Assembly (NCBI GenBank): GCA_963775955.1
Contig: CAVZKT010000001.1
Span: 85,437 to 149,436, forward strand
Source of the DNA: Candidatus Moraniibacteriota bacterium
GTDB taxonomy: Bacteria > Patescibacteriota > Minisyncoccia > Moranbacterales > UBA2206
Direction: 5' to 3'
Length of the DNA: 64,000 nt
Shown: in pieces, positions 4,176 to 61,383 of the stretch
Position numbering within the stretch: the stretch's first letter is position 1
Layout of the letters: the number at the start of each line of letters is the position of its first letter
Position numbers and translations under genes: made by a program
Notes under the pieces: model-generated
Told to the model about the DNA's origin: nothing
The model's input: the letters and a program-made list of their open reading frames with translations, nothing else
Databases searched by the model: none

Positions 4176-5149
4176 ATGACCATCCAACAAATCTACAAGC
4201 TGGCGATTGAATTGGGAATCAAAAATGATTTCCGGCCGAAAACACAAATAGAGAAACAATTAAAAAGGATTAAAGAAAAATATGAGAAACTTTCCAAAGA
4301 CGAGAAAGCTTTATTCGACACGGAGAAGCTCGCCAGTCCATACACTGATTCGCGCATTCATTTTGACAACGGAGTGAAAAATATAAAAAAAGTTATGGCG
4401 GGAATAGATATTGATAGCGCAGAACTGATGATGGCAAAATACTTAACTGATCATAATTCCAAAAAACCGATTGATCTGGTGGTTGCGCATCATCCGGTCG
4501 GGAAAGGGCCTCGCGGATCTCACGGGAGTAATGCACCTCCAGGCGGATGTCCTGGCGCAATACGGCGTGCCGATCAATATTGCCGAAAGTTTGATAAAAA
4601 TAAGAATTGAAGAAGTAACCCGGGGAGTTGATCCGATTAATCATTACAAGCCAGTGGATGCGGCCAGAATTTTAAACTTAAGTTTCATGAATGTCCATAC
4701 GCCGGCGGACAATATGATGGCCAAATTTGTTGAGGCTAAATTAAAAAAAGACAAGCCGGAATATGTCGGCGAAATTTTGAAGTCGCTTTTGGAAATTCCG
4801 GAATATAGAGAAGCGGCCAGGCTGGGAGCTGGGCCGCGGCTTTTTACCGGTTCGGCAGAAAATCGGGCGGGAAAAATTGCTGCTCACGGAGCTTACCGGA
4901 GGAACAGAGGGAAGTCCAAAAATTTATGAAAAAATGTCCCAGGCCGGAATTGGTACGGTCATTTCCATGCACCAAAGCGAAGAGCACAAGAAAGCAGCGG
5001 AAAAAGCGCACATCAATGTCGTCATCGCCGGGCATATTTCTTCCGATTCCATTGGGATGAATTTATTTTTGGACGAGCTGGAGAAAAGAGGAATTGAAAT
5101 TGTGTCATGCTCGGGGCTAATAAGATATAGCCGGGTTAAAAAGAAATGA
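4176..5149 (+). CDS. NIF3/DUF34-like metal-binding protein (tentative), at least 2 frame changes
   Basis: Fragments 4176-4610, 4471-4929 and 4877-5149 join colinearly. AHHP, NVHTPADN and AGHISSDS motifs resemble the NIF3 family. Confidence 0.45.
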
Positions 5150-5150
5150 A

Positions 5151-5184
5151 CCCCGTTAGAATTTTAATCAAAGTTCTCATGGGG
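5151..5184. repeat. Short hairpin of the CCCCGTTAGAA family (CCCCGTTAGAA...TTCTCATGGGG)
   Basis: Imperfect inverted repeat immediately after the TGA stop at 5147-5149. It shares a terminus with the elements at 11278, 29853 and 61149. Confidence 0.6.
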
Positions 5185-5248
5185 CTTGAAGCTAATTTTT
5201 TATATTTTTAATACTTATTATTTTAATAGTAGTATTAATTCTAATGGG

Positions 5249-6523
5249 GTGAAATTCAAAAAAACTACGCTAAAAAATGGCTTGCGCATTCTGACTGTGC
5301 CGATGAAAGATACGCAAACAGCGACAGTGGTTGTTATGGTGGGCGTCGGTTCGCGCTATGAAACTGAAAAAGAAGCCGGAATTTCCCATTTTCTGGAGCA
5401 TATGTTTTTTAAGGGAACGGAAAAGCGGCCGACGACGCTGGATATTTCTTCGGAGCTGGATGCTATTGGCGGAGAATTCAACGCTTTTACGGCTAAAGAT
5501 AAGACCGGATATTATGCCAAAGTGGATTCAAAGCATACAAGCGTTGCATTGGACATTATCTCCGGACATATTTTTAAATTCAAAAATGGAAGCAAAGGAA
5601 ATTGAAAAAGAAAAGGGTACGATTATTCAGGAGATAAATATGTATGAAGATACGCCGAGAATGAAAATAGGGGACGTGTTTGAAAATTTAATTTTTACGG
5701 ACAGTTCTCTGGGAAGGGAAATAATTGGAAATAAAAAGACAGTAAAAAATTTTCAGAGAAAAGAGTTTGTTGGATTATAAAAATAAATTTTATGTGTCCA
5801 ATGATACGGTGGTTTGTGTTGCCGGAAATTTTAATGAAAAGAAAAATATAAAAAGCTTGAGGAATATTTTTCCAGAATGACAAAAAGGGAAAAAACCTGC
5901 ATTTAAAAAGGTCAAGGAAAATCAAAAACAAGCCGCAGGCTATAATGCGAAATTTAAAGAGAACAGATCAAACTCATTTAATACTGGGAAATCTGGCTTA
6001 TCATCATAATCACAAAGACCGTTTTATACTGGGACTTTTGGCCATTATTCTGGGCGGGAATATGAGCAGCCGGCTATTTTCGGAAATACGCGAGAAAAGA
6101 GGTTTGGCATACAGTGTCCATACCGGTGTTGAAGCTTATTCAGATTGCGGCTATATAGCTACGCAAGCCGGAGTAGAACATGGAAATCTTGAAAAAACAG
6201 TTGGAATTATTCTGAAGGAATATAAAAAAATATCAACAGAAAAAGTCAGTGAAAATGAATTAAAAAAAGCCAAAGATTATATTAAAGGGCAGAGTGTGAT
6301 GAATTTTGAATCGTCAGATGAAGTAGCTATGTTTTACATAGATCAGGAATTAATCAGGAAAAAGATAATGAATATGGAGGAGATATTCGCCAAGATTGAC
6401 AAAGTGACGGCAGATGACATACTAAAAGTAGCCAAGGATATTTTCAAAGAAAAAACGCTCAATCTAGCCGTTATTGGACCGCACCAGGACGGCAAAAAAT
6501 TGAAAAGAATACTTAAATTATAA
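5249..6523 (+). CDS. M16 (pitrilysin/insulinase) family zinc peptidase, at least 4 frame changes
   Basis: Contains the HFLEH inverted zincin motif in GISHFLEHMFFKGT. Fragments are 5186-5605, 5331-5780, unlisted frames at 5760-5940, and 5945-6523. The start (GTG 5249 or TTG 5186) is uncertain. Confidence 0.8.
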
Positions 6524-7769: not shown

Positions 7770-8240
7770 TTATTTTATAAATAAAATTATTATAGCGATA
7801 AGGGAAATGACAATATCATTCACGCCATTTCGCAGATTCCAGGCGCAATCGGGAGAAAGAGAAGGATACTTATGGCACCACAAATGGAATTCATAGAGTT
7901 TTTTAAGTAATGGAAAATTAAATTTCCAATATAAAAATGTTAGAGAATCGGGGAATATTGAAGCAAAGATCCCAAGAAAAATGTATTTTATTTGGAGCGC
8001 GCTAAATTGATTAAAATAAATAAGCAGAAGTATAGCAAGAAAACCAACAGAAAAATCCAAAGCCACTTTCCACCAAGTATTTTTAAAAGTGACATTACTG
8101 TCAAAACCTTCCACATATTCCCCGTGGCGGAAAGTGTCCAGAATAAAATGCATGGCCAATGAAAAAATAACAATCAGCCAGGGGTTATGGATTTTTTCGC
8201 CGATGGCGGCGCCGACAAGGGCGTGAGTGGCTAATATCAT
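7770..8240 (-). CDS. Membrane protein, possibly a DUF457/YdjM-like metal-dependent hydrolase
   Basis: 156 aa, 4-5 TM segments. N-terminal MILATHALVGAAIG and HFILDTFRHG His motifs. Confidence 0.45.
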   Translation of the reverse strand: MILATHALVGAAIGEKIHNPWLIVIFSLAMHFILDTFRHGEYVEGFDSNVTFKNTWWKVALDFSVGFLAILLLIYFNQFSALQIKYIFLGIFASIFPDSLTFLYWKFNFPLLKKLYEFHLWCHKYPSLSPDCAWNLRNGVNDIVISLIAIIILFIK

Positions 8241-8348
8241 AATTTTAAATTTTTAATTTCAGATTTTAAAACAATTTCCAATTACTAAATTTTCAAAATT
8301 CTTAAAAGTCGGGTTGATAAACTTTATGTTTTAGGCTAGGATTAATTC

Positions 8349-9024: not shown

Positions 9025-10437
9025 ATGAAAAATAATTTTATATCACAACCCCAATCTATTATGCCAATGCTAAACCGCATATCGGGCACGCCTACACGAC
9101 CATTGCGGCGGATGTTTTGGCGCGGTTTCACAAACTGCAAAATGAAGAAGTTTTCTTCTTGACCGGCATGGATGAGCACGGAGCTAAAATTCAAAAAGCG
9201 GCCGAAGCGCAAGGCAAAGATCCGCAAAAATTTGTGGACGAGATCGGAGAAGAATTCAAAGATCTCTGGGAAAAGCTTAATATAAAATACGATAATTTTA
9301 TTTGTACCACCAATTCAAAGCACAAGGAGGCGGTGCAAAAAGTTTTGCAAACTCTTTATGACAAGGGCGCGATTTATAAAGGCGAATATAAAGGATTGTA
9401 TTGTGTGGGATGCGAGCAGTTCAAAAATGAAAATGAGCTGGTTGAGGGTAAATGCCCGGATCACAATACTGTTCCAGAAAAAACACGGGAAGAGTGTTAT
9501 CTTTTGAAACTGACTGAAATACAGCCAAAATTGATTGAAAAAATTGAAAAGAACGAATTTGAGATTGCCCCGGAAAGATACAAGAATGAAATACTCTCTT
9601 TTCTTAAAAGCCAGGAACTCAAAGATATTTCTGTTTCCAGGAAGAATGTTGAAATGGGGAGTGCCGCTTCCATTTGACTCGGAGCATACAACCTATGTTT
9701 GGGTGGACGCGTTTTTAAATTATCTCACCGGACTTGGCTGGGATGGCGATATGAATAATATTCCAAAACAATGGCCGGCCGATGTGCAGTTAATCGGCAA
9801 AGATATTTTGCGTGTTCATGCGACTATTTGGCCGGCGATTCTTTTGCATTTAGGGATTGGCCTCCCCAAAATACTTTTTACTCACGGGCATATTCTTTCC
9901 GGCGGGAAAAAAATGAGCAAAACTTTAGGCAATGTGATTAGTATTGATGAAATGCTGGAAAAATTCGGGACGGATGGGACGCGCTATCTTTTGCTTAGCG
10001 CCGGAACATTTGGAGACGATGTGAATGTGACAATGGAAAGAATGATTGAGAAATATAATGCTGATTTGGCGAATGGATTGGGAAATTTAATTTCGCGAGT
10101 TATAAAACTCGCTCAGAATTTCCAATTTCCAATTTCCAATTTCCAATCAATTTCCAATGACCAATTTTTAAATTTTATAAAAAATATAGAAATTGATAAA
10201 GCATTGGATTACGTATGGAATATTATTCAGGCTGATAATAAATACATTGAAGAAAATAAACCATGGGAACTTGTGAAAACCGATAAGAAAAAATTTGAGG
10301 AAGTAATGCGAAAGTTAATTATGGATTTACTTAATATTGCCGATTTAGTATTGCCTTTCATGCCTGAAACTTCGGAGAAAATCAAGAAAGCGCTAGAAAC
10401 CAAAAAAGTTGAACCGCTTTTTCAAAGAATAAAATAA
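9025..10437 (+). CDS. metG: Methionine--tRNA ligase (short form), frame changes near 9035 and 9535-9677
   Basis: ITTPIYYANAKPHIGHAYTTIAAD (HIGH) is readable just after ATG 9025 in a shifted frame. Also FLTGMDEHG, a Zn knuckle CVGCEQF...CPDH, and KMSKTLGN (KMSKS). Confidence 0.88.
10117..10170. repeat. Tandem heptamer array (AATTTCC x4 plus degenerate copies) inside metG
   Basis: Read directly. Translated as NFQFPISNFQSISNDQ. The same word array is in leuS at 19572-19637. Confidence 0.9.
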
Positions 10438-11264
10438 TGTTAATCGATACCCACGCTCATGTCAACTTCGCCGCCTATAAAGACGATGCGGATGAAGTGC
10501 TGAAACGAACGCTTGAAGCGGGCGTTTTTGTCGTGAATGTCGGGTCGCAGTATTCAACCAGCGCGAGAGCCGTAAAGATGGCGGAAAAATATCCGGAGGG
10601 AATATATGCGGCAGTCGGATTGCATCCAATACATCTCGTCAAAAGAAAAATAAATCCCGATGATTCAGAACTTAATGAAAATGATTTTGAAACTACCGGT
10701 GAGATTTTCAATAATCAAAAATATTTGGAACTGGCCAGAAATCCGAAAGTTGTGGCCATCGGCGAAATGGGGCTGGATTATCATCACTTTGAAGAAGGGG
10801 ATAATATAGAAGAATTAAAAAAGAAACAGAAAGAAACTTTTCTTGCGGGTATAAAATTAGCTAATGAAATTAAAAAACCGATAATTATCCATTGCTGGGA
10901 TGCCTATGACGATTTGCTTGAAATTCTTAAAAATAATCCGGTGGAAAAAGAAGGAGTCATTCACAGCTTTATCGGCGGTTACAAAACAGCGCGCAAATTT
11001 ACGGAACTCGGCTACAAAATCGGACTTAATGGCGTTGTGACTTACGCTGAAGATTTTAATCGTTTAATCAAAGAATTGGATATAAGAGATATTGTGCTGG
11101 AAACAGACTGTCCATATCTCACGCCGGTTCCGCATAAAGGCGAAAGAAATGAGCCGCTTTATGTAAAACTAGTAGCTGAAAAAGTGGCTAAAGTAAGAGA
11201 AATTTCAGTTGAAGAGGTGGCGAGTGTTACTACTCAAAATGCGAAAACAATATTTAACTTATAA
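10437..11264 (+). CDS. tatD: TatD family metal-dependent hydrolase
   Basis: MLIDTHAHVNF start, GEMGLDYH, IIHCWDA. The start overlaps the metG stop by 1 nt (TAATG). Confidence 0.88.
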   Translation: MLIDTHAHVNFAAYKDDADEVLKRTLEAGVFVVNVGSQYSTSARAVKMAEKYPEGIYAAVGLHPIHLVKRKINPDDSELNENDFETTGEIFNNQKYLELARNPKVVAIGEMGLDYHHFEEGDNIEELKKKQKETFLAGIKLANEIKKPIIIHCWDAYDDLLEILKNNPVEKEGVIHSFIGGYKTARKFTELGYKIGLNGVVTYAEDFNRLIKELDIRDIVLETDCPYLTPVPHKGERNEPLYVKLVAEKVAKVREISVEEVASVTTQNAKTIFNL

Positions 11265-11277
11265 AAAATTTGATATA

Positions 11278-11394
11278 TTGACCCCGTTAGAAATTCATCT
11301 ATAGCCAGTGCTTTCAGTAAGAACTCGAGTGAAGCGGCTTTGCCTTAGTGTTTAAATATTAGTAGCTATTTGCAAAATTTCTAACGGGGTTGAC
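11278..11394. mobile_element. MITE-like element, termini CCCCGTTAGAAATT / AATTTCTAACGGGG, flanked by direct TTGAC
   Basis: 14-nt terminal inverted repeats. TTGAC at 11278-11282 and 11390-11394. The internal GTGAAGCGGCTTTGCC module is shared with the copy at 61149-61266. Confidence 0.7.
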
Positions 11395-11452
11395 TTTTTT
11401 GCATTTTTAAGAGAAAATAGACAGTGATGTTATAAACATCAATCCTTTATTT

Positions 11453-11677
11453 ATGGCCAATAAAAACCAAAACGAACGACCCTGGAGCGCTCTCGGATTT
11501 GCCTGGCAATTGGGCTATTCCATAACTGTTCCGATAGTAATATTTGCCCTGGCCGGAAGATTTTTAGACAAAAAAATGGGCACTTCGCCCTGGCTTTTAC
11601 TAGGAGGAATATTGATATCAATAATCGTTTCATCATATATGGTCTATAAAAAAACGACAGAAGTGATGAAAGAATAA
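11453..11677 (+). CDS. atpZ: ATP synthase protein I/AtpZ-like small membrane protein
   Basis: 74 aa, two TM helices, first gene of the atp cluster. Confidence 0.7.
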   Translation: MANKNQNERPWSALGFAWQLGYSITVPIVIFALAGRFLDKKMGTSPWLLLGGILISIIVSSYMVYKKTTEVMKE

Positions 11678-12804: not shown

Positions 12805-12937
12805 ACCCTGTTAAATAAATTTTGCTAAAGCAAAATTAGATTTGAGAAAAACCGGGTGGATGGGTAAATCAAAAGTAATCATTAGAAAAATAAGGCGATT
12901 CTATAAAAGAATAGACTCAAATCTTATTTAACAGGGT
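12805..12937. mobile_element. MITE-like element (ACCCTGTTAAATAA ... TTATTTAACAGGGT) between atpE and atpF
   Basis: 14-nt perfect terminal inverted repeats. Related to the CCCCGTTAGAA family. The right end is 2 nt from the atpF ATG. Confidence 0.65.
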
Positions 12938-16342: not shown

Positions 16343-17756
<1,414 letters not shown>

Positions 17757-18877: not shown

Positions 18878-21328
18878 ATGGAAAAATACGATCCAAAGAA
18901 AATAGAACCGAAATGGCAGGAATTTTGGCTTAAAGAAGGCATTTATAAGGATTATGGAAAATCCAAGAAGTTCTACGCTTTGGATATGTTTCCCTATATT
19001 TCCGGCTCCGGCATCCATGTGGGGCATCCGAAGGGGTATATTGCCACTGACGTAGTGTCCCGCTTTAAAATACTCCAAGGATACAGCGTGCTTCATCCGA
19101 TGGGCTGGGACGCTTTCGGGCTGCCAGCGGAAAATTATGCCATTAAAAATAAAATAAATCCCAATATCTTTGTTAAGGAAAATATCATCAGGTTTAAAAA
19201 ACAATTGGAAATGTTCGGCTTTACCTATGATTGGGACAGGGAACTTAGCACTACCGACCCGGATTATTATAAATGGACGCAATGGATATTCCTGAAATTA
19301 TTTGAAAAAAGATTGGCGTATGAATCCAATGAGCCGGTTAATTGGTGTTCCAGCTGTAAAACCGTATTGGCCAACGAAGATTTAGAAGGAGGAAAATGCG
19401 AACGTTGCGGAACCCAAGTAGTCCAAAAGAAGATGAGGCAGTGGGTCCTAAAAATGACCGATTACGCCGACCGTTTGCTTTATGATTTGGATACGGAGGA
19501 TCTGGATTGGGAGGAGCAAATCCTTGAACAGCAGAGAAATTGGATCGGCCGATCAGAAGGAGCCTTGATAGAATTTCCAATTCCCAATTTCCAATTTCCA
19601 AATAAATCCCAAAATCTAAATTCCAAAAATCAAAACTATCTAGAGGTGTTTACCACAAGATTGGACACTATTTACGGCTGCACCTATTGCGTGATCGCGC
19701 CAGAGCACGAAATAATTGAAAAATTGAAAGATAAAATTGAAAATTATGAGGAAGTAAAAAAATATATTATTGCCGCGCAGAATAAAACGGAATTGGAAAG
19801 AATGGAAATGAAAGAAAAAAGCGGAGTAGAACTTAAGGGCATAAAAGTTACCAATCCTTTTAATAATAAAGAAATACCGTTATTCGTGGCGGATTATGTT
19901 TTGGCGCATTACGGCACCGGCGCAGTGATGGCAGTCCCGGCGCACGATGAAAGGGATTTTGAATTCGCCAAGAAGAATAATCTTAAGGTCAAAGAAGCTA
20001 TTAAAAGCGAAGACAGTAAATCTTCCATAGAAAAAGAAGCCTTTATCAATGATGGAGTTTTAGTAAATTCTGAAAAATATTCAGGCTTAACCTCTAAAAA
20101 AGCCCGCGAAAAAATGACCAAGTGGCTGGAAAAAGAAAAGGTCGGCAAGAAAAAAGTAAATTACAAAATGCGCGACTGGGTATTTTCAAGGCAAAGATAT
20201 TGGGGGGAGCCGATTCCCATAATCCACTGCGAAAAATGCGGAACGGTGGCGGTTCCGGAAAAAGAGCTGCCTCTGAAATTGCCGGAGGTCAAAAATTATG
20301 AGCCGACTGGAACGGGCGAAAGTCCGCTAGCCAACATAAAAGATTGGGTTAATACGGTTTGTCCCAAATGCGGCGATCCGGCTAAGCGTGAAACCAACAC
20401 TATGCCGCAATGGGCTGGATCTTCCTGGTATTATCTGCGCTACATCGATCCAAAAAATGACAAAGCTCTGGTTGATAAAGAAAAAGAAAAAAAATGGATG
20501 CCGGTGGATCTGTATGTAGGCGGAGCGGAACATGCCACGCGCCACTTGCTGTATGCCAGATTCTGGCACAAATTTCTCTACGATATTAAAGTGGTTTCCA
20601 CCAAGGAACCTTTTAAAAGATTAATTCATGTCGGTTTGGTTGATGGAGAAGACGGAAAAAAAATGAGCAAGCGCTGGGGGAATGTGATAAATCCTGACGA
20701 TGTGATAAATGAATTCGGAGCCGATTCGCTGCGCCTTTATGAAATGTTTATGGGACCTTTCAGCCAGAACATTGCCTGGAGCACGGATGGCGTAAAAGGA
20801 GTGAGAAGATTTTTAGAAAAAGTTTGGAAATTACATGAAAAAATTAACAAAAATAAATTAGATAATAAAAAAACAGAAGCACTTATCCATAAGACCATTA
20901 AAAAAGTCACGGAAGATATTGAAAATTTCCGGTTCAATACGGCCATCAGCCAGATGATGATATTAGTTAATGAAATGGAAAAAGAAAAAGAGTTACAAGT
21001 TGCAAGTTATGAGTTGCTAATTATTATTTTAAGTTCTTTTGCTCCGCATATTGCCGAAGAGCTTTGGAATAAATTAGGCCGCAAGGAATCAATATTCCTG
21101 CAAAAATGGCCGGAGTATGATCCGGAGATCATTAAAGACGAAAAAATAACTCTAGTGATTCAGGTCAATGGCAAGGTGCGCGATTCAATTGAAGCGGATG
21201 CCGGAATTTCCGAAGCCGAAGCGAAGGAACTGGCCATGCAAAGCGAGAAAATAAAAACCCGGACAGCAGGCAAGGAAATTAAAAAAATCATTTTTGTCAA
21301 AGGCAAATTAATAAATATTGTGCTGTAA
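18878..21328 (+). CDS. leuS: Leucine--tRNA ligase
   Basis: 816 aa, intact. HVGHPKGY (HIGH), KMSKRWGN (KMSKS), CP1 editing domain TTRLDT. Confidence 0.97.
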   Translation: MEKYDPKKIEPKWQEFWLKEGIYKDYGKSKKFYALDMFPYISGSGIHVGHPKGYIATDVVSRFKILQGYSVLHPMGWDAFGLPAENYAIKNKINPNIFVKENIIRFKKQLEMFGFTYDWDRELSTTDPDYYKWTQWIFLKLFEKRLAYESNEPVNWCSSCKTVLANEDLEGGKCERCGTQVVQKKMRQWVLKMTDYADRLLYDLDTEDLDWEEQILEQQRNWIGRSEGALIEFPIPNFQFPNKSQNLNSKNQNYLEVFTTRLDTIYGCTYCVIAPEHEIIEKLKDKIENYEEVKKYIIAAQNKTELERMEMKEKSGVELKGIKVTNPFNNKEIPLFVADYVLAHYGTGAVMAVPAHDERDFEFAKKNNLKVKEAIKSEDSKSSIEKEAFINDGVLVNSEKYSGLTSKKAREKMTKWLEKEKVGKKKVNYKMRDWVFSRQRYWGEPIPIIHCEKCGTVAVPEKELPLKLPEVKNYEPTGTGESPLANIKDWVNTVCPKCGDPAKRETNTMPQWAGSSWYYLRYIDPKNDKALVDKEKEKKWMPVDLYVGGAEHATRHLLYARFWHKFLYDIKVVSTKEPFKRLIHVGLVDGEDGKKMSKRWGNVINPDDVINEFGADSLRLYEMFMGPFSQNIAWSTDGVKGVRRFLEKVWKLHEKINKNKLDNKKTEALIHKTIKKVTEDIENFRFNTAISQMMILVNEMEKEKELQVASYELLIIILSSFAPHIAEELWNKLGRKESIFLQKWPEYDPEIIKDEKITLVIQVNGKVRDSIEADAGISEAEAKELAMQSEKIKTRTAGKEIKKIIFVKGKLINIVL
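19572..19637. repeat. AATTTCC/CCAAA word array inside leuS
   Basis: GAATTTCCAATTCCCAATTTCCAATTTCCAAATAAATCCCAAAATC... translated as FPIPNFQFPNKSQNLNSKNQ, between WIGRSEGA and the editing domain. Confidence 0.88.
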
Positions 21329-29852: not shown

Positions 29853-29948
29853 ACCCTGTTAGAAATTAAGCAGAATTTTTTGCGGGGAGATTTTAATTAT
29901 TTATGTAATTTTGCTGTTTTTAACAGACGGCAGAATTTCTAACGGGGT
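29853..29948. mobile_element. MITE-like element (ACCCTGTTAGAAATT ... GAATTTCTAACGGGGT) abutting folD
   Basis: Terminal inverted repeats of the CCCCGTTAGAA family. The right end overlaps the probable GTG start of folD (29947). Confidence 0.65.
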
Positions 29949-30787
29949 GAAACTACTTAAGGGCAGAAAAATTGCCGATAAAATTTTGGCGGACTTGAAA
30001 AGGGCCGTAAAAAAACAAAAAAGTAAGCCAGCGCTAGCGGTTGTTTTAGTTGGAAAAAATGGGGCGTCCGAAATATATGTTAAGCTAAAAAAACAAGCCG
30101 CCAAAAAAGTCGGCATCAATTTCTCTCTGCATCGATTTTTCAGAAATTCCGGTGAAAGAGAAATTGTCGGAAAAATAAAAGAACTCAATGGGGATAAAAA
30201 AATAAGCGGCATTATCGTCCAATTGCCGCTTCCGAAAAATTTGAGAATGCAGAAAATTATCAACGCCATTTCGCCCGGGAAAGACGCAGACGGATTCCAC
30301 CCGGAAAATTTGAAAAAATTTATGGCCGGGAAAAATGGAGTTGAACCAGTTTTTCCCAAGGCGATTATAAAAATCCTGGAAGCTATTCCAGAATCCGGGA
30401 TTTTGAGAAGGTAAAAAGGCGGCGATTATTACTAATTCCAAAGAATTTGGAAATACTATGCAAGCCGCGCTTAAACAAAAAGGAATTGAGGGACAGTATA
30501 TTCTACACAAAAATTATAAAAAAAGTTTATCCGCCATTGGGCGGACGGACATAGTAATTACTGCTGTTGGAAAACCAGATCTGATTACCAGTGACATGAT
30601 AAAAAAGAATGTGGTAATTATTGACGGAGGAATTGTCAAAAAAGGCAAAAAAGTTTTGGGCGATGTTGATTTTGAGTCAGTAAAAAATAAAGTTTCTTAC
30701 ATAACTCCCGTTCCCGGGGGCGTGGGCCCGGTAACTATTGCATGCCTCCTGGAAAATGTTTTTCTTTTAAGCAAAAAATCCCGGTAA
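29947..30787 (+). CDS. folD: Bifunctional methylenetetrahydrofolate dehydrogenase/cyclohydrolase, frame change near 30403-30407
   Basis: IIVQLPLPKN, GKDADGFHP, TPVPGGVGPVTIACLLEN. GTG start inferred from the alignment pattern MKLLKGRKIA. Confidence 0.88.
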
Positions 30788-34428: not shown

Positions 34429-36656
34429 TTACTTTTCAAACTTACACTCTTTGTTTGAACATTTGATTTTGCCTTTGGCGGCGAAGACAAGAAGGGACTT
34501 GCATTGCGGGCAGATTTCGCCGTTAGGTTTGTTCCAGAGCGCGAAGTCGCATTTGGGATAAGTATTGCAGCCGTAAAACAGACGGCCGCGTTTGGATTTT
34601 CGCTCAACAATATCCCCAACATTGCATTTAGGGCAAGTAATGCCCGTTTTCTTTTCAATTTTTTTAATGCCTTTGCATTGGGGATAATTGGAACAGCCGA
34701 GAAAAGTTCCAAATTTGCCGCGCTTCACCGCCATCGGCGCGCCGCAAATTTCGCAAATTTCGCCCCTATGTTCTTCATCCACTTTTTTTTCCGCGTCTGT
34801 TTTTTCCGTATGCTTGCAATTCGGATAGTTGGAGCAGGCGATGAATTTTCCAAAGCGCCCGAACTTCATGATCAAATCCCCGCCGCAATCGGGGCAGGCG
34901 CGGTCAAGTTTTTCCTGAAAATCTTCCTTTTTCACTTCTTTGGTTTTGGCCTCCAGATTTTTTTGGAAGGGCTTGTAAAATTCGCGGATTACCGGAACCC
35001 ACTTTCTTTTGCCTTCGGCAATTTCGTCAAAATCCATTTCAATGGTGGCGGTGAATTTAATATCCACTATTTCCGGAAAATGAGCGACCAAAAGATCATT
35101 GACTAAGGCGCCGATTTCCAGGGGATATAATCTTTTTTCTTCATTTTTATCGACATATTTTCTTTCAATAATAGTGGAAATTGTCGGCGCGTAAGTTGAC
35201 GGCCGGCCGATGCCGTTTTCTTCCATAACTTTTACCAGGGTGGCCTCATTGTAGCGCGGAGGCGCGGCTGTTTCTTTTTGGGCGGCCAGGATTCCGACCA
35301 AATCCAGATTTTCGCCGATTTTCATTTTTGGCAAAAGATTTTCGCCGTTGGCTTTGCCGTCCGTAGACTTTTGAGATAACCGTCAAATTTAACAGTGGAT
35401 CCATTAGCCTGCAATAAATATTTGTTTTTACCAGTAGCATCCACTTCGAGTTTTACTGAATCGAAAATTGCCGGCTGCATCTGGGAAGCAAGCATCTTTT
35501 TCCAGATGAGGCTGTATAATTTATATTCGCTTGGATCAATTTTGGCTTTCAGGTCATCCGGAGTTTTGTCGGGATAGGCCGGACGGATGGCCTCATGTGC
35601 TTCCTGGGCGCCTTTAGATTTGGTTTTATAAAATTTCGGATCAGGGAGAGCGTAATTTTTTCCGAATAACCGCGCGATGGTTTTTTGCGCGGAAAGCATT
35701 GACTCTAAAGAAAGATTCAGGCTGTCGGTGCGCATATAGGTGATATATCCTTTTTCGTAAAGTTTCTGCGCCTTGCTCATGGTGAACTTGGCGGAAAATC
35801 CCAGATTGCTGATAGCCGCCTGCTGCAGGGAAGAAGTGGTGAAAGGAGGGGAGGGATAACGCAGAGTTTCTTTTTCAGTTATATTACTGACTTTGAATTT
35901 AGCGCGCTTAAGATCGGCCACAATTTCGTCAGCCTTTTTCTGGCTGTCGATTAAAGTCTTTTTAATTTTATAATCGCCGGCGAATAATTTTAAGATTGCG
36001 GCTTGTTCAATTTTCTCACCGTTTTTTTCCGTGAGATTGGCCGTAAAATCCTGCTTTGAGCTCTGAACTTTGAACTTTGAATTTATAGCGTAGTATTTTT
36101 CAGACTTGAATTTTTCGATTTCTCTTTCTCTTTCAACGATCAGGCGCAGAGCTACCGATTGCACGCGCCCGGCGGAAAGTCCGCGGCGGATTTTTTTCCA
36201 GAGGAACGGGGAAAGTTCAAAACCGACCAGACGGTCCAAAATTCTTCTGGCTTGCTGGGCGTCCACCAGATTAAGATCAATCGCGCGCGGATTGTCTAAT
36301 GCTTTTTCAATGGCGCTTTTGGTAATTTCGTGAAAAACAATGCGCTTTGCTTCTTTGGGATTTAAATCCAAGGCTGAAACCAAATGCCAGGAAATAGCTT
36401 CTCCTTCGCGGTCTTCGTCAGTGGCGAGAATCACGTCTTCAGATTTTTTGGCCAGTTCTTTGAGTTCCTCTACTCTCTCGGCGGATTTGGCCGGAATAAC
36501 ATATTCCGGCGCAAAGTTATTCTCAATATCAATGCCCATTTTTTTGGCGGGCAGATCGCGGATATGGCCGTAGGAAGATTTAACGGTAAAAGCCTTCCCT
36601 AAAAATTTGGAAATAGTTTTGGCTTTAGTGGGGGACTCAACTATAACTAGCTTCAT
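34429..36656 (-). CDS. topA: DNA topoisomerase I, frame change near 35322-35334
   Basis: KLVIVESPTKAKTI, TOPRIM DEDREGE, and four C-terminal Cys4 zinc ribbons. Start at MKLVIVES (36656); an alternative is 36677. Confidence 0.92.
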
Positions 36657-36728
36657 GGAGCATGGAACATGGAACATGGAACAATTTTTCTTTAAATTGT
36701 TTTATGTTCTATGTTATGTGTTATGTGA
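36654..36728. repeat. Hairpin built from CATGGAA words (left) and GTTCTATG/GTTATGTG words (right)
   Basis: CATGGAGCATGGAACATGGAACATGGAAC ... GTTCTATGTTATGTGTTATGTG. It overlaps the topA start and the dprA stop. Confidence 0.75.
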
Positions 36729-37867: not shown

Positions 37868-38116
37868 ATGAGAAAGAAAAATTTAAAACCGATTAAGTTC
37901 CGCCAGGAGCTTTTTTGGGACGTTAATCTCAAGACAATTGATCCCAAAAAACACGCTGAATATATCATCGAGCGGATTTTGGATTTTGGGAGAGATAATG
38001 AAGTGAGGTGGATGAATAAATTTTATTCAAGAGTAATTATCAAAAGAACTCTAGATGGTTCCAGGGTTTTACACAATAAGACAAGAGCTTTATGGCAACT
38101 ACTGCTAAAAAACTAG
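37868..38116 (+). CDS. Small protein paired with AbiEii-type nucleotidyltransferase (putative antitoxin/partner)
   Basis: 82 aa, overlaps the next ORF by 25 nt. No HTH recognised. Confidence 0.5.
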   Translation: MRKKNLKPIKFRQELFWDVNLKTIDPKKHAEYIIERILDFGRDNEVRWMNKFYSRVIIKRTLDGSRVLHNKTRALWQLLLKN

Positions 38117-38778
38117 AAAACACGGAATTAAAATTTGAAATCTTGCCATCAAAAACAAAAAAAGCTTTTTTGTATTGCGCGGAAAGTTTTTTCTGGTTGA
38201 ATAAGTATGGATTATATCTTGCTGGTGGAACAGCACTGGCCTTGCAGACTGGCCACAGACAATCAGTGGATCTTGATTTTTTTACAAGAAAAGATGACTT
38301 TAACAATGTATCTTTGGAAAGAAAATTATTATCTACTAAAAATTGGGAAACAACATACGCTGAAGAAGGAACGATTTACGGAAAACTAGCCGGCGCAAAA
38401 ATGAGCCTTATCGCTTATCCTTTTTTTATTCCTGCCAGGCCGTTTTTAAAATTTGGAAAGTTAAGAATTTTAGCCAAAGAAGATATCGCAGTTATGAAAA
38501 TAATCGCAATTAGCCAGAGAGGTCGTAAACGTGATTTTGTGGACTTGTATTGGTATTTTAGAAACTGTGAACCGCTTATAGATGTGCTTCGGCGGGTAAA
38601 AAAACAATATCCTCAACAGAAACACAATATGCATCATTTTTTAAAAAGTCTGGTATACTTTGACGATGCAGAAAAAGATCCGATGCCATCTCTGTTTTTT
38701 TCTGTTTCATGGAAAGAGATCAAAAGTTATTTTCAAAAAGAAATTAAGCAGGTTTCGGAATCTTTAAATTTATTATAA
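38092..38778 (+). CDS. Nucleotidyltransferase, AbiEii/AbiGii toxin family (DUF1814-like)
   Basis: LAGGTALALQTGHRQSVDLDFFT motif. Confidence 0.75.
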   Translation: MATTAKKLENTELKFEILPSKTKKAFLYCAESFFWLNKYGLYLAGGTALALQTGHRQSVDLDFFTRKDDFNNVSLERKLLSTKNWETTYAEEGTIYGKLAGAKMSLIAYPFFIPARPFLKFGKLRILAKEDIAVMKIIAISQRGRKRDFVDLYWYFRNCEPLIDVLRRVKKQYPQQKHNMHHFLKSLVYFDDAEKDPMPSLFFSVSWKEIKSYFQKEIKQVSESLNLL

Positions 38779-43854: not shown

Positions 43855-43934
43855 CATATAACATACAACATGAAACATGTAACAAAAACTACTAATTAGA
43901 AAATTGTTACATGCTATATGCTTCATGCTTCATG
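43855..43934. repeat. Hairpin built from ACATG/CATGA words
   Basis: CATATAACATACAACATGAAACATGTAACAA ... TTGTTACATGCTATATGCTTCATGCTTCATG. The right arm runs into the next ORF's start. Confidence 0.75.
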
Positions 43935-53404: not shown

Positions 53405-54070
53405 ATGGAACAATTAACATCAAAGCAAAATACGGTTTTGGAAACTATCCGGGAAATTATTGAGGCGGAAAAAGAAAATCCGACGACTTATCGCGTGCAT
53501 AAATTTTTGGAAGAAAGGGGGGTGGAAGTCGGCAGCCTCAAGGGAACAGTCCAAGTCATTGAAGCGCTGGAGAAAAAAGATCTGCTTAAGCGCGATAAAA
53601 GCAAAAAAATATATCTGGTGGAAAATGATAATTATGCCAACCTGGGAAATATTTTTTCCATTCCGATGTATGGCCTGGCTTCCTGTGGAGAAGCGCTGGC
53701 TTATGCCGAAGGCAATGTGGATGGATATCTCCAAATTTCCGAAAGCCTTTTCAGAAAGGCCGATCCGGCCAAACTTTTTGCCGTAAAAGCTTTGGGTGAT
53801 TCCATGGACAAAGAGGAAATCGGCGACGGTGATTATGTAGTTTTTGAAAAATGCGAACTGGACCAGGATTTTGAAAATAAAATAGTGGTGGCAGTCATCA
53901 ACGGCATGGCGACGATCAAGAGATATAAAAAACTCAAGCACGGCATCATCGGACTTTTTCCGCAATCGCGAAATCCCATCCACCAGCCGATTTATTTGGA
54001 TGAATCAGACTCCATTCTCATTGCCGGAATTTTCCGCAAAGTCCTGCCGGTGGCGTATGTGAGCTTGTAA
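53405..54070 (+). CDS. lexA: LexA-type repressor (wHTH plus S24 peptidase)
   Basis: N-terminal LTSKQNTVLETIRE wHTH, an ASCGEALAYAEG cleavage-site region, GDSM (Ser) and ATIKRY (Lys). Confidence 0.88.
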   Translation: MEQLTSKQNTVLETIREIIEAEKENPTTYRVHKFLEERGVEVGSLKGTVQVIEALEKKDLLKRDKSKKIYLVENDNYANLGNIFSIPMYGLASCGEALAYAEGNVDGYLQISESLFRKADPAKLFAVKALGDSMDKEEIGDGDYVVFEKCELDQDFENKIVVAVINGMATIKRYKKLKHGIIGLFPQSRNPIHQPIYLDESDSILIAGIFRKVLPVAYVSL

Positions 54071-54104
54071 AAGACGGGGTAAAAACCAATAAAAAGCTGA
54101 AATT

Positions 54105-54929
54105 ATGGAAACAACAAAAATAGTTTTATTTAGAAATCGAAAAATCAGGAAAACTTTGCATAATAATGAGTGGTGGTTTGTGGTTGAAGATGTTGTATTT
54201 GCGCTTACGGATTCAGTTAATCCCAAGGATTATATAAATAAGATGAGGACCAGAGATAAAGAATTAAACAAGGGGTATGGACAAATTGTCCATACCCTTG
54301 AGGTTCCAACTGGGGGAGGAAAACAAAAAATGAATTGTGCGGATACGGAAGGCATTTTTCGCATTATTCAATCAATCCCGTCATCCAAAGCCGAACCATT
54401 TAAGCGCTGGCTGGCGAAAGTTGGGTATGAACGAGTGCAAGAAATTAAAAACCCGGAACTGGCAACTAAAAGAACAAGGATACTTTATAAGCTCAAAGGA
54501 TATAGCGATGACTGGATTGAAAAACGGATGCGCGGAATCGCTGTCCGCGAAGAATTGACGGACGAATGGCAAAAGCGAGGCGCGCGCGAACAAAAAAATT
54601 ATGAAATTCTGACGGCGGAAATTTCCAGGGCGACTTTCGGAATGACCCCGGGCAAATACAAAAAATATAAAAACCTGAAGCGCGAAAATTTGCGGGATCA
54701 CATGGATGATTTGGAACTGATTTTCACTATGCTGGGAGAAAGGGCAACAACGGAAATTCATCGCGACGAAAATTCTTATGGTATGCCAAAATTAAAAACT
54801 GATGCCAGGGAAGGCGGCGATATTGCCGGCGGAGCAAGGAGAAAATTGGAAAAAAGGCTAGGGAGACCTGTTACGACCAGGAGCAATTATAAGAAAATAA
54901 AACCGGGGAAGATTATAGAACGGCGATAG
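54105..54929 (+). CDS. Bro-N domain protein with DinD-like C-terminal region (DNA-damage-inducible protein D-like / antirepressor-like)
   Basis: WWFVVEDVVFALTD...GGGKQKMNCADTEGIFRIIQSIPSSKAEPFKRWLAKV (Bro-N pattern). The C-terminus KNLKRENLRDHMDDLELIF resembles DinD as recalled from memory. Confidence 0.65.
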   Translation: METTKIVLFRNRKIRKTLHNNEWWFVVEDVVFALTDSVNPKDYINKMRTRDKELNKGYGQIVHTLEVPTGGGKQKMNCADTEGIFRIIQSIPSSKAEPFKRWLAKVGYERVQEIKNPELATKRTRILYKLKGYSDDWIEKRMRGIAVREELTDEWQKRGAREQKNYEILTAEISRATFGMTPGKYKKYKNLKRENLRDHMDDLELIFTMLGERATTEIHRDENSYGMPKLKTDAREGGDIAGGARRKLEKRLGRPVTTRSNYKKIKPGKIIERR

Positions 54930-60337: not shown

Positions 60338-61041
60338 ATGGTGTTGGGCGGTTACCAAAAACTTACCCTCATTGATTATCCCGGAAAAATTGCCACCACG
60401 GTTTTTACGGTTGGCTGCAGTTTTCGCTGTCCGTTTTGCCATAATCCGGAATTAGTTAAACATGGAACATGGAACATGGAACAAAGAACAACGATGGAAA
60501 AAGAGTTTTTTGAGTTTTTGAAAAAAAGCAAAGGCAAGCTGGAAGGCGTGTGCATTACTGGAGGCGAGCCGGCGATCCAGCCTGATTTGGAAGAATTTAT
60601 CAAAAAAATAAAAAAGCTGGGTTTTTTGGTAAAGCTGGATACTAATGGCAGCCGGCCGGATGTGCTCAAGAAACTTATGGATAAAAAACTTCTGGATTTT
60701 GTGGCAATGGACATAAAAAGCAGCTCGAAAAATTATATTAAAACGACAGGATTAAAAGTGGATATCAAAAGGATAAAATTAAGCGTTAATTTGATAATGA
60801 AACAGCAAACTGCCGTATGAATTTCAGAACTACGGTTGTGCCCGGCATCCACACGGAAAAAGATTTTGAGGAAATCGCCAAATGGATCAAAGGCGCCAAG
60901 ACTTATTATCTCCAGGAATACCGCGAAATTAAAATTCTGGATCCCAAGCTTAAGAAAAAAACCAAAGGCAAAACCATTGATCTGGAAAAAATTAAGAAAA
61001 AAATCGAGAAAAATTTCGGGAAGATGGGAATCAGGAGGTAA
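60338..61041 (+). CDS. nrdG: Anaerobic RNR activating enzyme (radical SAM), 2 frame changes near 60800-60825
   Basis: CSFRCPFCHN cluster, ITGGEP. YEFRTTVVPG is readable only after removing one A (AAA run) and one base in ATTTCAG. Confidence 0.88.
60461..60482. repeat. CATGGAA x3 array inside nrdG
   Basis: The 22-mer CATGGAACATGGAACATGGAAC is identical to 36663-36684. Translated as HGTWNMEQ. Confidence 0.9.
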
Positions 61042-61051
61042 AATCATACCT

Positions 61052-61383
61052 ATGAGAATTTATATAAAAGTCCTGCCTCGTTCGTCAAAAAATGAGGTCG
61101 CGAAAGTTTCCGAAGGGGAATATAAAGTGAAGCTGACCGCCCCACCAATTGACCCCGTACGAAGTTCATCAACAATTTTGTTTTTACAAACACGCTCAAG
61201 CGAAGCGGCTTCGCCTCTATATTTTTCTGTCAGCAAGCGCTTCTCAAAACTTCTAACGGGGTTGACGGCGCGGCCAATAAAATGCTATTAGATATACTAG
61301 CGGAGTATTTTAGTATTAGCAGAAGTTCGTTAAAAATCATCGGCGGAAAAACTGCCAGGGTTAAATTAGTAGAAATTTCATAA
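61052..61383 (+). pseudogene. yggU: DUF167/YggU family gene interrupted by a 113-nt MITE-like insertion
   Basis: MRIYIKVLPRSSKNEVAKVSEGEYKVKLTAPPID (frame 2) resumes as GAANKMLLDILAEYFSISRSSLKIIGGKTARVKLVEIS* (frame 1) after the insertion. Confidence 0.8.
61149..61266. mobile_element. MITE-like element (CCCGTACGAAGTT ... AACTTCTAACGGGG) flanked by direct TTGAC, inside yggU
   Basis: TTGAC at 61149-61153 and 61262-61266. The internal CTCAAGCGAAGCGGCTTCGCC module matches the copy at 11278-11394. Confidence 0.75.

Follow-up and report, generated by a model that had tools for sequence, protein, structure and literature searches.

Elements at the atp operon and in yggU

The stretch of DNA analysed here, referred to as the window, comprises 64,000 nt (64 kb) of contig CAVZKT010000001.1 (positions 85,437 to 149,436 of the forward strand) from the Candidatus Moraniibacteriota bacterium assembly GCA_963775955.1. 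It contains five copies, designated elements A to E, of a family of short inverted-repeat elements, 94-131 nt in length and without a conserved open reading frame (ORF), which the original prediction had likened to miniature transposable elements with inverted repeats (MITEs). This assignment was supported by empty sites in relatives, by the reconstruction of an interrupted yggU gene, and by 267 copies pooled from other genomes (among the matches listed), about 60% of which had identical 4-mers on both sides. The features at the sites of elements A and B, the promoter of the atp operon and yggU, are as follows (a strand is given only for the promoter and the gene).

11278..11281: TTGA, left target-site duplication copy of element A, read from the sequence; the relative L123 has a single TTGA there
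11282..11389: element A, non-autonomous and hairpin-forming, 108 nt long, its perfect inverted ends (14 nt) being CCCCGTTAGAAATT
11390..11393: TTGA, right duplication copy of element A, forming bases 1-4 of the -35 hexamer
11390..11418, plus strand: atp operon promoter, sigma-70-like and pre-existing, TTGACT-17-GAAAAT, which received element A
61052..61383, plus strand: yggU, interrupted by element B, the N-terminal part running to 61152 and the C-terminal part from 61262
61149..61152: TTGA, left duplication of element B, within the yggU codons ATT GAC
61153..61261: element B, a 109-nt copy inside yggU (DUF167) with 2 left-arm substitutions (CCCCGTACGAAGTT)
61262..61265: TTGA, right duplication of element B

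The terminal inverted repeats of element A, predicted to be 14 nt long, are perfect and occupy 11282-11295 and 11376-11389 (15 nt if the flanking A/T is included), whereas the length of the element, put at about 112 nt, is 108 nt, or 116 nt together with both TTGA copies. Both strands fold into long hairpins (z-scores -4.0 and -5.6). The TTGAC flanks that had been described can indeed be read on both sides of elements A and B. However, the C on the left side is base 1 of the inverted repeat, so that the true direct repeat is the 4-bp TTGA; at element A, the C on the right side is only the next genomic base.

It had also been proposed that the right-hand TTGAC could serve as a -35 box for the atp operon. 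TTGACT-17-GAAAAT was the sole promoter-like match within 11100-11600, and it was compared with the corresponding region of three relatives, L120, L122 and L123, in which TatD is 84-88% identical and the tatD-atp synteny is the same. The block TTGACTTTTTT..AAGAGAGAAT was invariant or nearly so in all three, and the promoter form TTGACTTTTTT...GAGAAT was kept in relatives without element A, which indicates that the promoter is older than the element and was preserved rather than made by it. Element A was thus inserted into the -35 hexamer, and the duplication of TTGA keeps the hexamer intact; in L123 the element is absent and a single TTGA lies at its position. It was also noticed that in L120 (about 6400-6430) only TTTTTTAACGGGG-TTGAC (AACGGGG-TTGAC) is present at this site, preceded by an additional sigma-70 gene and its terminator; this sequence is probably a solo right end left by a rearrangement.

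Element B was reported to have the same features as element A, and it has the same build and the same TTGA flanks, apart from the two substitutions in its left arm. The two elements are 71% identical overall and, as predicted, have an internal module in common, CTCRAGYGAAGCGGCTTYGCC, with the core GAAGCGGCTTYGCC. Removal of element B and one TTGA from yggU yielded a 72-aa protein matching PF02594 at positions 3-76 of 76 with 73.8 bits; the interrupted halves cover positions 3-38 and 45-76 of the DUF167 profile. The net insertion is 113 nt and is out of frame as assembled, both reading frames being open through the element and the two arm substitutions being synonymous in the yggU frame. Because frameshifts affect several essential genes of the window (see below), assembly indels had to be reckoned with for yggU. 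The idea that element B is really in frame, with an indel masking it, was nevertheless weakened, as an independent assembly of a relative (Logan, SRR22388209) also has a 109-nt, out-of-frame copy at the same codon.

When the N-terminal ORF of the window yggU was compared with 1.84 billion representative proteins, truncated YggU fragments were found in two relatives. One of them (L289, 1325-1433) has a 109-nt copy with a TTGA duplication at the identical yggU nucleotide, 70-73% identical to element B, the same level as between A and B. The other (L290, 212-503) has at the same nucleotide a 292-nt element with a TTGA duplication, different ends and a gene for a GIY-YIG protein, described below. 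Both halves of yggU are intact in all three genomes despite the insertions. In each of the three, the site fits the target consensus of the family (see below) on at least one side, as (G/A)-TTGA-C within RTT GAC (VDG/IDG), where hyphens mark the borders of the duplicated tetramer. Since the site matches the consensus and the L290 element belongs to a different subfamily, repeated independent insertions are the simplest reading of the shared position, and the VDG/IDG codon pair of yggU is an insertion hot spot. A further YggU homologue of 127 aa (P0373) has an in-frame insert, YPVKSSLLRGVRPSGQFNGVK, at another position, apparently a related element that is translated.

Other copies in the window

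Three more elements were delimited, one of which lies in the atp operon downstream of element A.

5147..5253: element D, 99 nt (5151-5249) plus a TGAA/TGAA duplication, on the ATG of an M16 peptidase gene
29854..29947: element C, 94 nt, flanked by TTAA/TGAA, its last base being shared with the GTG start of folD
12806..12936: element E, 131 nt, divergent, ends CCCTGTTAAATAA, flanks TTCA/TAAA, in the atpE-atpF spacer

Among the additional copies that had been suggested, element C proved to be real and element E to be related, whereas the segment 5151-5184, regarded as a shortened copy, is the left part of the full-length element D. Owing to the insertion of D, the start codon of the M16 peptidase gene is now a GTG composed of the last G of the element followed by TG. 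Element E is located 3 nt upstream of the atpF ATG and is absent from all three relatives, whose atpE-atpF spacers are 54-79 bp long as compared with 192 bp in the window.

All five copies form long hairpins (z-scores -3.3 to -6.7), and the terminal sequences are far too frequent for chance: CCCCGTTAGAAATT with at most one mismatch occurs 6 times in the window against 0.06 expected from shuffles, and CCCYGTTARAW 8 times against 0.34. In agreement with the original prediction, transposase was not detected in the window. Pfam scans of its 38 ORFs (6 of them without any Pfam match) revealed no transposase or integrase domain, and tblastn and hidden Markov model (HMM) searches with IS1380 and GIY-YIG proteins gave no match within the 64 kb. 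As the elements have no gene of their own, they must be moved in trans.

Distribution and ends of the family

A search of GTDB genomes with the pattern CCCCGTTAGAA-N65-95-TTCTAACGGGG gave at least 119 loci, where about 2 would be expected by chance according to our estimate. A scan of metagenomes for single termini gave at least 144, and 132 of the 144 listed had a mate within 170 nt; with the mate left unconstrained, positions 1-13 were conserved at 85-99% among the metagenome matches listed. The pooled external set of 267 copies comes from 239 loci in other genomes, the hosts being taken from record titles. Among the matches listed, these hosts included members of many Patescibacteria classes (about 39 loci), Desulfobacterota (about 29), Planctomycetota (13), Omnitrophota (7) and Nitrospirota (4), in addition to Bdellovibrionales, Gammaproteobacteria, Elusimicrobia, Cloacimonadota, Edwardsbacteria, Stahlbacteria and Clostridia; archaeal hosts were not among them. 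The family is present in at least a dozen bacterial phyla. In viral contigs, the paired pattern had no match, and the 20 single-terminus matches were mostly chance. Literature searches on the end sequence, on the encoded peptides and on MITEs of Patescibacteria returned nothing relevant.

The copies are held together by a terminal motif of about 13 nt, CCCCGTTAGAAAT, found inverted at both tips; CCCCGTTAGAA and CCCCGCACTAAC represent different end subfamilies. Their interiors are largely unrelated, with the exception of one Desulfobacterota subfamily (n=27). Lengths in the pooled set range from 26 to 200 nt, duplications are present even in the 26-45-nt forms, and one 40-nt form was found at 7 loci. 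Up to 3-4 copies occur within single 8-kb loci, and identical copies lie at different sites on four contigs of the metagenome-assembled genome (MAG) DX4.bin27. In this MAG (L003, L005, L025 and L048) the identical 94-nt copies are contained in a larger repeat of about 325 bp, and in L005 two such repeats are inverted around a gene for a 686-aa secreted protein, in a composite-like arrangement. At another locus (L104, 6124-6231), two 52-nt copies are in tandem with one TGAA common to both.

Target-site duplication

Identical flanking 4-mers were found at 76 of 120 copies in the genome set and 68 of 116 in the metagenome set, among the matches listed. The main classes in the genome set were TTTA/TAAA (40), TTGA/TCAA (14) and TTCA/TGAA (11). 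G prevailed at position -5, and the genome set, unlike the metagenome set, was rich in C at position +5, so that the preferred target is G-TNNA-C. Two other lengths of the duplication were considered and rejected. With TTGAC taken as a 5-bp duplication, identical 5-mers should flank the copies, and none of the 120 copies had them. A 2-bp duplication, with the A/T counted as part of the element, does not agree with flanks such as TGGG, TATG, TGAG and CATA, the outer bases of which are non-complementary. TTGA is only one of many duplicated tetramers, so that the family is not characterised by TTGAC flanks; what its members share is the ends. The original prediction had held that copies lacking both TTGAC and common termini would be unrelated hairpins; the copies do share their termini.

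It is hardly conceivable that the elements are recombination sites, either of the attC type of integrons or of the Xer/dif type, or chance hairpins. GTTAGAA/TTCTAAC does resemble the attC core GTTRRRY/RYYYAAC, and the mini forms of 26-30 nt have the appearance of two 11-bp arms separated by a spacer of 4-7 nt. However, the core polarity is reversed relative to attC (5'-GTTAGAA...TTCTAAC-3' versus 5'-RYYYAAC...GTTRRRY-3'), the copies are single and dispersed with neither cassette arrays nor an integrase nearby, variable 4-bp duplications flank them, and the shuffles exclude chance.

Sites at which copies persist

Insertions avoid ORFs, with 38 of 219 sites lying inside one as compared with 502 of 744 random positions. 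Where they are internal to an ORF, the length they add is a multiple of 3 in 21 of 32 cases (p = 1.9e-4), whereas all other copies are unbiased (76/74/60). Twelve genic copies are read through without a stop codon and encode xPVRN...ISNGV or PLE...LTG. Their hosts, as checked with Pfam, include IF-2, DnaX, an IorA-like enzyme and an Fdh-like molybdopterin oxidoreductase (two copies); HemK-, ExeA-like- and glycogen-debranching-like proteins were named by eye from translated ORFs. Each end is open in two of its three frames. The notion that the elements are designed to be translated was not supported, since the interiors are not significantly stop-depleted (77 open, 64 expected).

Gene boundaries and promoters make up further classes. 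Twenty-eight external copies lie exactly on a start codon, the target being A-TGAA, so that the last G of the element plus TG regenerates a GTG start; the N-termini that follow are genuine in LepA, AtpD and pilins. Elements D (M16 peptidase) and C (folD) of the window belong to this class. Among 26 TTGAC-flanked external copies, the hexamer is TTGACA in 15, and a -10 motif, TAnnnT, follows at 16-18 nt in 16; element A is a member of this -35-box class (TTGA-CA). Of 488 sides of external elements, 22 are entered by a long ORF of the host that terminates at the TAG of the element's end (CCC CGT TAG), and 17 have the host stop codon inside the duplicated tetramer. The copies that persist are those that do little harm, namely those in -35 boxes, at start codons, at stop codons and in frame within genes.

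These sites also bear on the possibility that the elements are structured RNAs, or intervening sequences that are spliced out or bypassed, for example by a hop from GAC to GAC in yggU. The strong RNA folds (z-scores -3.3 to -6.7), the yggU halves kept intact in three genomes, the identical GAC codons flanking element B and the synonymous nature of both of its left-arm substitutions would agree with such a reading, but it is very unlikely. No Rfam family matched the window elements at gathering or E-value thresholds, the interiors are unrelated and of any length, and the take-off codon is followed neither by a stop codon nor by another known bypass signal. Moreover, the yggU site fits the target consensus, so that repeated independent hits explain the intact halves, and the enrichment of genic copies for multiples of 3, together with translation through them, points to DNA insertions under selection, not to splicing or bypass.

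Coding elements and the search for an autonomous partner

An autonomous partner carrying the same termini had been suggested as a check on the MITE assignment. DDE transposase genes with these ends were not found in the loci searched; coding elements of another kind were. Three independent elements of 281-318 nt have the ends of the family and duplications, their sole ORF encoding an 84-93-aa GIY-YIG protein. The first (L290, 212-503; 292 nt), which lies in yggU, is bounded by perfect ends of 18 nt, CCCCGCACTAACTTTTTT; the stop codon of its 84-aa GIY-YIG protein is in the right end. The second (L174, 1860-2177) has ends CCCCGTTAGAAAC and a TGAA/TGAA duplication; its nuclease ORF lacks a start codon and is entered, in the PVRN frame of the left end, from the ATG that the host provides within the duplicated ATGAA. 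Downstream, the host gene restarts at a GTG made by the last G of the element. Nested within the nuclease ORF, in frame, is a 32-nt mini-copy with a TAAA duplication. The third (L026, 6919-7199) has ends CCCCGTTAGAGA; orthologous copies in L291 and L292 lie after the etfB stop codon and before the etfA ATG. The L174 and L026 loci were among those collected for their copies of the family, and homologues of the L290 protein were recognised in them. The proteins contain PF01541 only (52-54 bits), without any other domain, and fill the interior of the element.

The alternative that has to be weighed against these elements is that the copies are ordinary MITEs moved by an unsampled insertion sequence (IS) of the DDE type, most plausibly of the IS1380/piggyBac lineage, with the GIY-YIG ORFs as passengers. 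DDE transposases classically leave a 4-bp duplication; piggyBac elements target TTAA and have ends CCCTAGAAAG, and IS1380 elements generate 4-5-bp repeats and have ends beginning with CC. The family has, likewise, a 4-bp duplication (4-5 bp in IS1380), a symmetric TNNA target (G-TNNA-C), similar to TTAA, and CCC..TAGA(A) ends, which resemble those of piggyBac and IS1380; the members of IS1380 examined here begin with CC(C)TA(G/A)A, as in ISEcp1 (CCTAGATTCTACG) and an environmental clade (CCCTAAAAAAGAGATAGG). One IS1380-type transposase gene was located 4.4 kb from a copy, in L157. We nevertheless consider this explanation unlikely. None of about 410 inspected termini adjoins a transposase gene, the 1.6 Mb of DNA around copies shows no recurrent transposase family, and GIY-YIG proteins are all that is encoded by the coding elements that have the right ends. 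No IS1380-type transposase with these ends was found at any locus examined, and the IS1380 elements that were examined have other ends and 5-bp duplications. Pairs of termini at IS-sized distances with matching flanks delimited no transposase-coding element in the 0.88 Mb of loci scanned, where the small number of pairs that matched were termini of separate copies, and no gene of any kind recurred as a neighbour of the copies in the 1.6 Mb.

IS1380 was also pursued directly as a candidate partner; none was obtained by tblastn with ISEcp1, by two protein searches, which gave close relatives only, or by a profile scan of viral contigs, which gave ISEcp1-like elements only. The environmental IS1380 element itself (L157, 10030-11355; L246-L257) is very abundant and has relatives 85-96% identical, most of them on contigs 1.6-2.5 kb long. 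It is bounded by CCCTAAAAAAGAGATAGG and CCCAAATCCCGATATAG, the left end being strikingly piggyBac-like, and its duplications are 5 bp (CTCCT, GGGTT).

Relationship to known repeat systems

In structure, the family shows every feature by which MITEs are recognised, except a proven autonomous partner. It resembles the bacterial MITEs Correia/NEMIS, RUP, ERIC and MITEAba12 in size, inverted ends, duplication, non-coding nature and copy number, and these are also found near promoters and gene ends and are co-transcribed as hairpins. Known MITEs, however, are bound to a genus or family and have ends in common with a DDE IS, whereas here 13 identical nucleotides are shared across at least a dozen phyla, forms as short as 26-40 nt still have duplications, and no DDE partner was found.

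The closest precedent for the coding elements is the Ssn family of 94-aa single-domain GIY-YIG nucleases, which cut single-stranded DNA (ssDNA) beside a hairpin repeat, NTS/SRM; this repeat flanks the ssn gene and is dispersed in hundreds of copies, and its IS-like architecture was noted by the authors (Chenal et al. 2025, Nat Commun, PMC11893778). Both systems have a stand-alone GIY-YIG gene of about 90 aa bracketed by inverted, dispersed hairpin repeats in an IS-like manner, and the hosts of Ssn/NTS include Rickettsia and Wolbachia, which are known for palindromic elements inside genes. Of the traits of Ssn/SRM, single-domain GIY-YIG proteins of 84-93 aa were found, as were flanking repeats in L174, in L026/L291/L292 and in L290. 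Differences were also evident: the arms here flank variable DNA and can be separated by as much as about 200 nt; 4-bp duplications and empty sites are present that are unreported for NTS; the nuclease is nearest to UPF0213 among solved structures; and the hosts are mainly Patescibacteria, Desulfobacterota, Planctomycetota and Omnitrophota.

REP/REPIN-RAYT systems are alike in having dispersed hairpins, a small nuclease acting on single-stranded hairpins and an enzyme gene flanked by repeats. Their enzyme, however, is of the HUH/Y1 type (IS200/IS605-like), and the repeats have a GTAG head, lack duplication and are inherited largely vertically within genera, whereas the ends here start with CCCC, 4-bp duplications are present and no neighbour gene is recurrent. 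Rickettsia palindromic elements, attributed to Ogata et al. in 2000, and Coxiella MITEs reportedly lie in frame inside protein-coding genes, essential ones included, and are translated. The external copies in frame in IF-2, DnaX, IorA-like and Fdh-like genes are similar, but the frame is fixed by the ends here, duplications are clear and many phyla are involved; element B of the window is out of frame.

It is conceivable, if improbable, that the elements represent hairpin repeats, of either the Ssn/NTS or the REP/RAYT type, that have been domesticated and are kept by a host nuclease for a cellular role, for example in controlling recombination, transformation or the stability of transcripts, rather than parasites with ongoing transposition. 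Ssn genes flanked by hairpin repeats with hundreds of dispersed copies are documented, the ends here are conserved across phyla while the interiors drift, and many copies are at gene boundaries. On the other hand, duplications, empty sites, nested insertions and the disruption of yggU mark recent insertion, copies are non-syntenic between relatives, the SRM motif is unmatched, and the GTAG head of REPs, which themselves lack duplications, is absent.

Proposed mode of movement

The insertion marks, i.e. the empty sites of elements A and E, the reconstruction of yggU, the nested mini-copy and the dispersed identical copies, together with the coding elements, lead us to the reading that the five elements are non-autonomous copies of a very small hairpin-type mobile family, the autonomous form of which probably encodes a GIY-YIG nuclease; we regard this as the probable explanation as a whole. 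We infer that the nuclease mobilises the copies, in the following manner. The autonomous form would be an element of 281-318 nt with the same ends and duplication and one GIY-YIG ORF resembling UPF0213/Ssn. The two ends may pair into a hairpin in single-stranded DNA, which the nuclease would recognise and cut beside, like Ssn with NTS hairpins, and host repair, ligation or replication would then complete excision and insertion, creating the 4-bp repeat.

Several observations weigh against this explanation. The coding elements are only 3 independent ones as compared with 267 non-coding copies, no GIY-YIG gene is present in the 64-kb window, the ends of L290 represent a subfamily differing at 4 of 11 positions, and around the related GIY-YIG genes of L118 and L198 such ends cannot be recognised. 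About 40% of the copies lack identical flanks. The closest solved structures are the UPF0213 protein BH0048 (1ZG2, E 2.8e-7) and EF2693, and the SRM consensus HGTCWY..YYVSBRH..WNVSBRG..RNCYNB matched none of the window or coding elements, whereas it did match the NTS control. GIY-YIG nucleases merely hydrolyse DNA, so that such an enzyme would need host functions for DNA joining; we know of no DNA transposon with GIY-YIG as its sole enzyme, and 4-bp duplications are, as stated above, typical of DDE transposases. The GIY-YIG ORF could be a passenger, or a homing-endonuclease gene that invaded the elements.

More tentatively, the family may represent a class of DNA transposon with a stand-alone GIY-YIG nuclease of about 85 aa as its only protein, a single-stranded hairpin intermediate, insertion that nonetheless leaves a 4-bp duplication, and 'self-healing' ends, a proposal to which we attach somewhat less than even weight. 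At least one copy, the L174 element, would have no room for a promoter of its own and would borrow the ribosome-binding site and ATG of its host. The ends would have evolved to heal themselves at start codons, -35 boxes and reading frames, which would allow the elements to colonise the streamlined Patescibacteria and to cross phyla. If this is true, an element of about 280 bp would be the smallest autonomous mobile element known in bacteria.

Other features of the window

Several conserved, mostly essential genes of the window are split. These are metG (9117-10437, with a shift near 9642 and one base more than in L122), topA (34432-36677, two ORFs), atpD (16521-17390, only 290 aa), folD (29947-30787, with a shift near 30410 in a T4 run) and nrdG (60338-61041, with a shift near 60817); the M16 peptidase gene (5250-6520) is also in pieces. 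Residual assembly indels in the long contig (287 kb), rather than true pseudogenes, are most likely behind these interruptions.

A low-complexity repeat of the TTTCCAATTTCCAA type occurs three times (8237-8307, 10113-10183 and 19568-19638), one copy lying inside metG, where it encodes QNFQFPISNFQSISN, and another inside leuS. Short tandem CATGGAACATGGAACA motifs lie near gene ends at 36654-36684, 43855-43885 and 60461-60491, the third being within nrdG and encoding GTWNMEQ. A gene for a Peptidase_S24 (LexA/CI-like) protein followed by a BRO-N domain gene (53405-54926) and an AbiEii toxin gene (38092-38775) are possible prophage or defence-island remnants.

Implications

In MAGs of Patescibacteria, Desulfobacterota, Planctomycetota and Omnitrophota, these elements break or extend gene calls, giving false frameshifts, split genes and shifted starts; the 13-nt end motif together with a TNNA duplication suffices for their annotation. 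As they prefer TTGAC(A) and ATGAA, they are natural markers for promoters and start codons in organisms in which neither has been mapped. A sequence-specific ssDNA nuclease of new specificity would, in addition, serve as a reagent. If the link to the GIY-YIG nuclease holds, another nuclease superfamily would be placed among the enzymes that drive DNA transposition, the Ssn ssDNA nucleases would gain a plausible selfish origin, and a source would be provided for the palindromic inserts in essential genes of many uncultured lineages.

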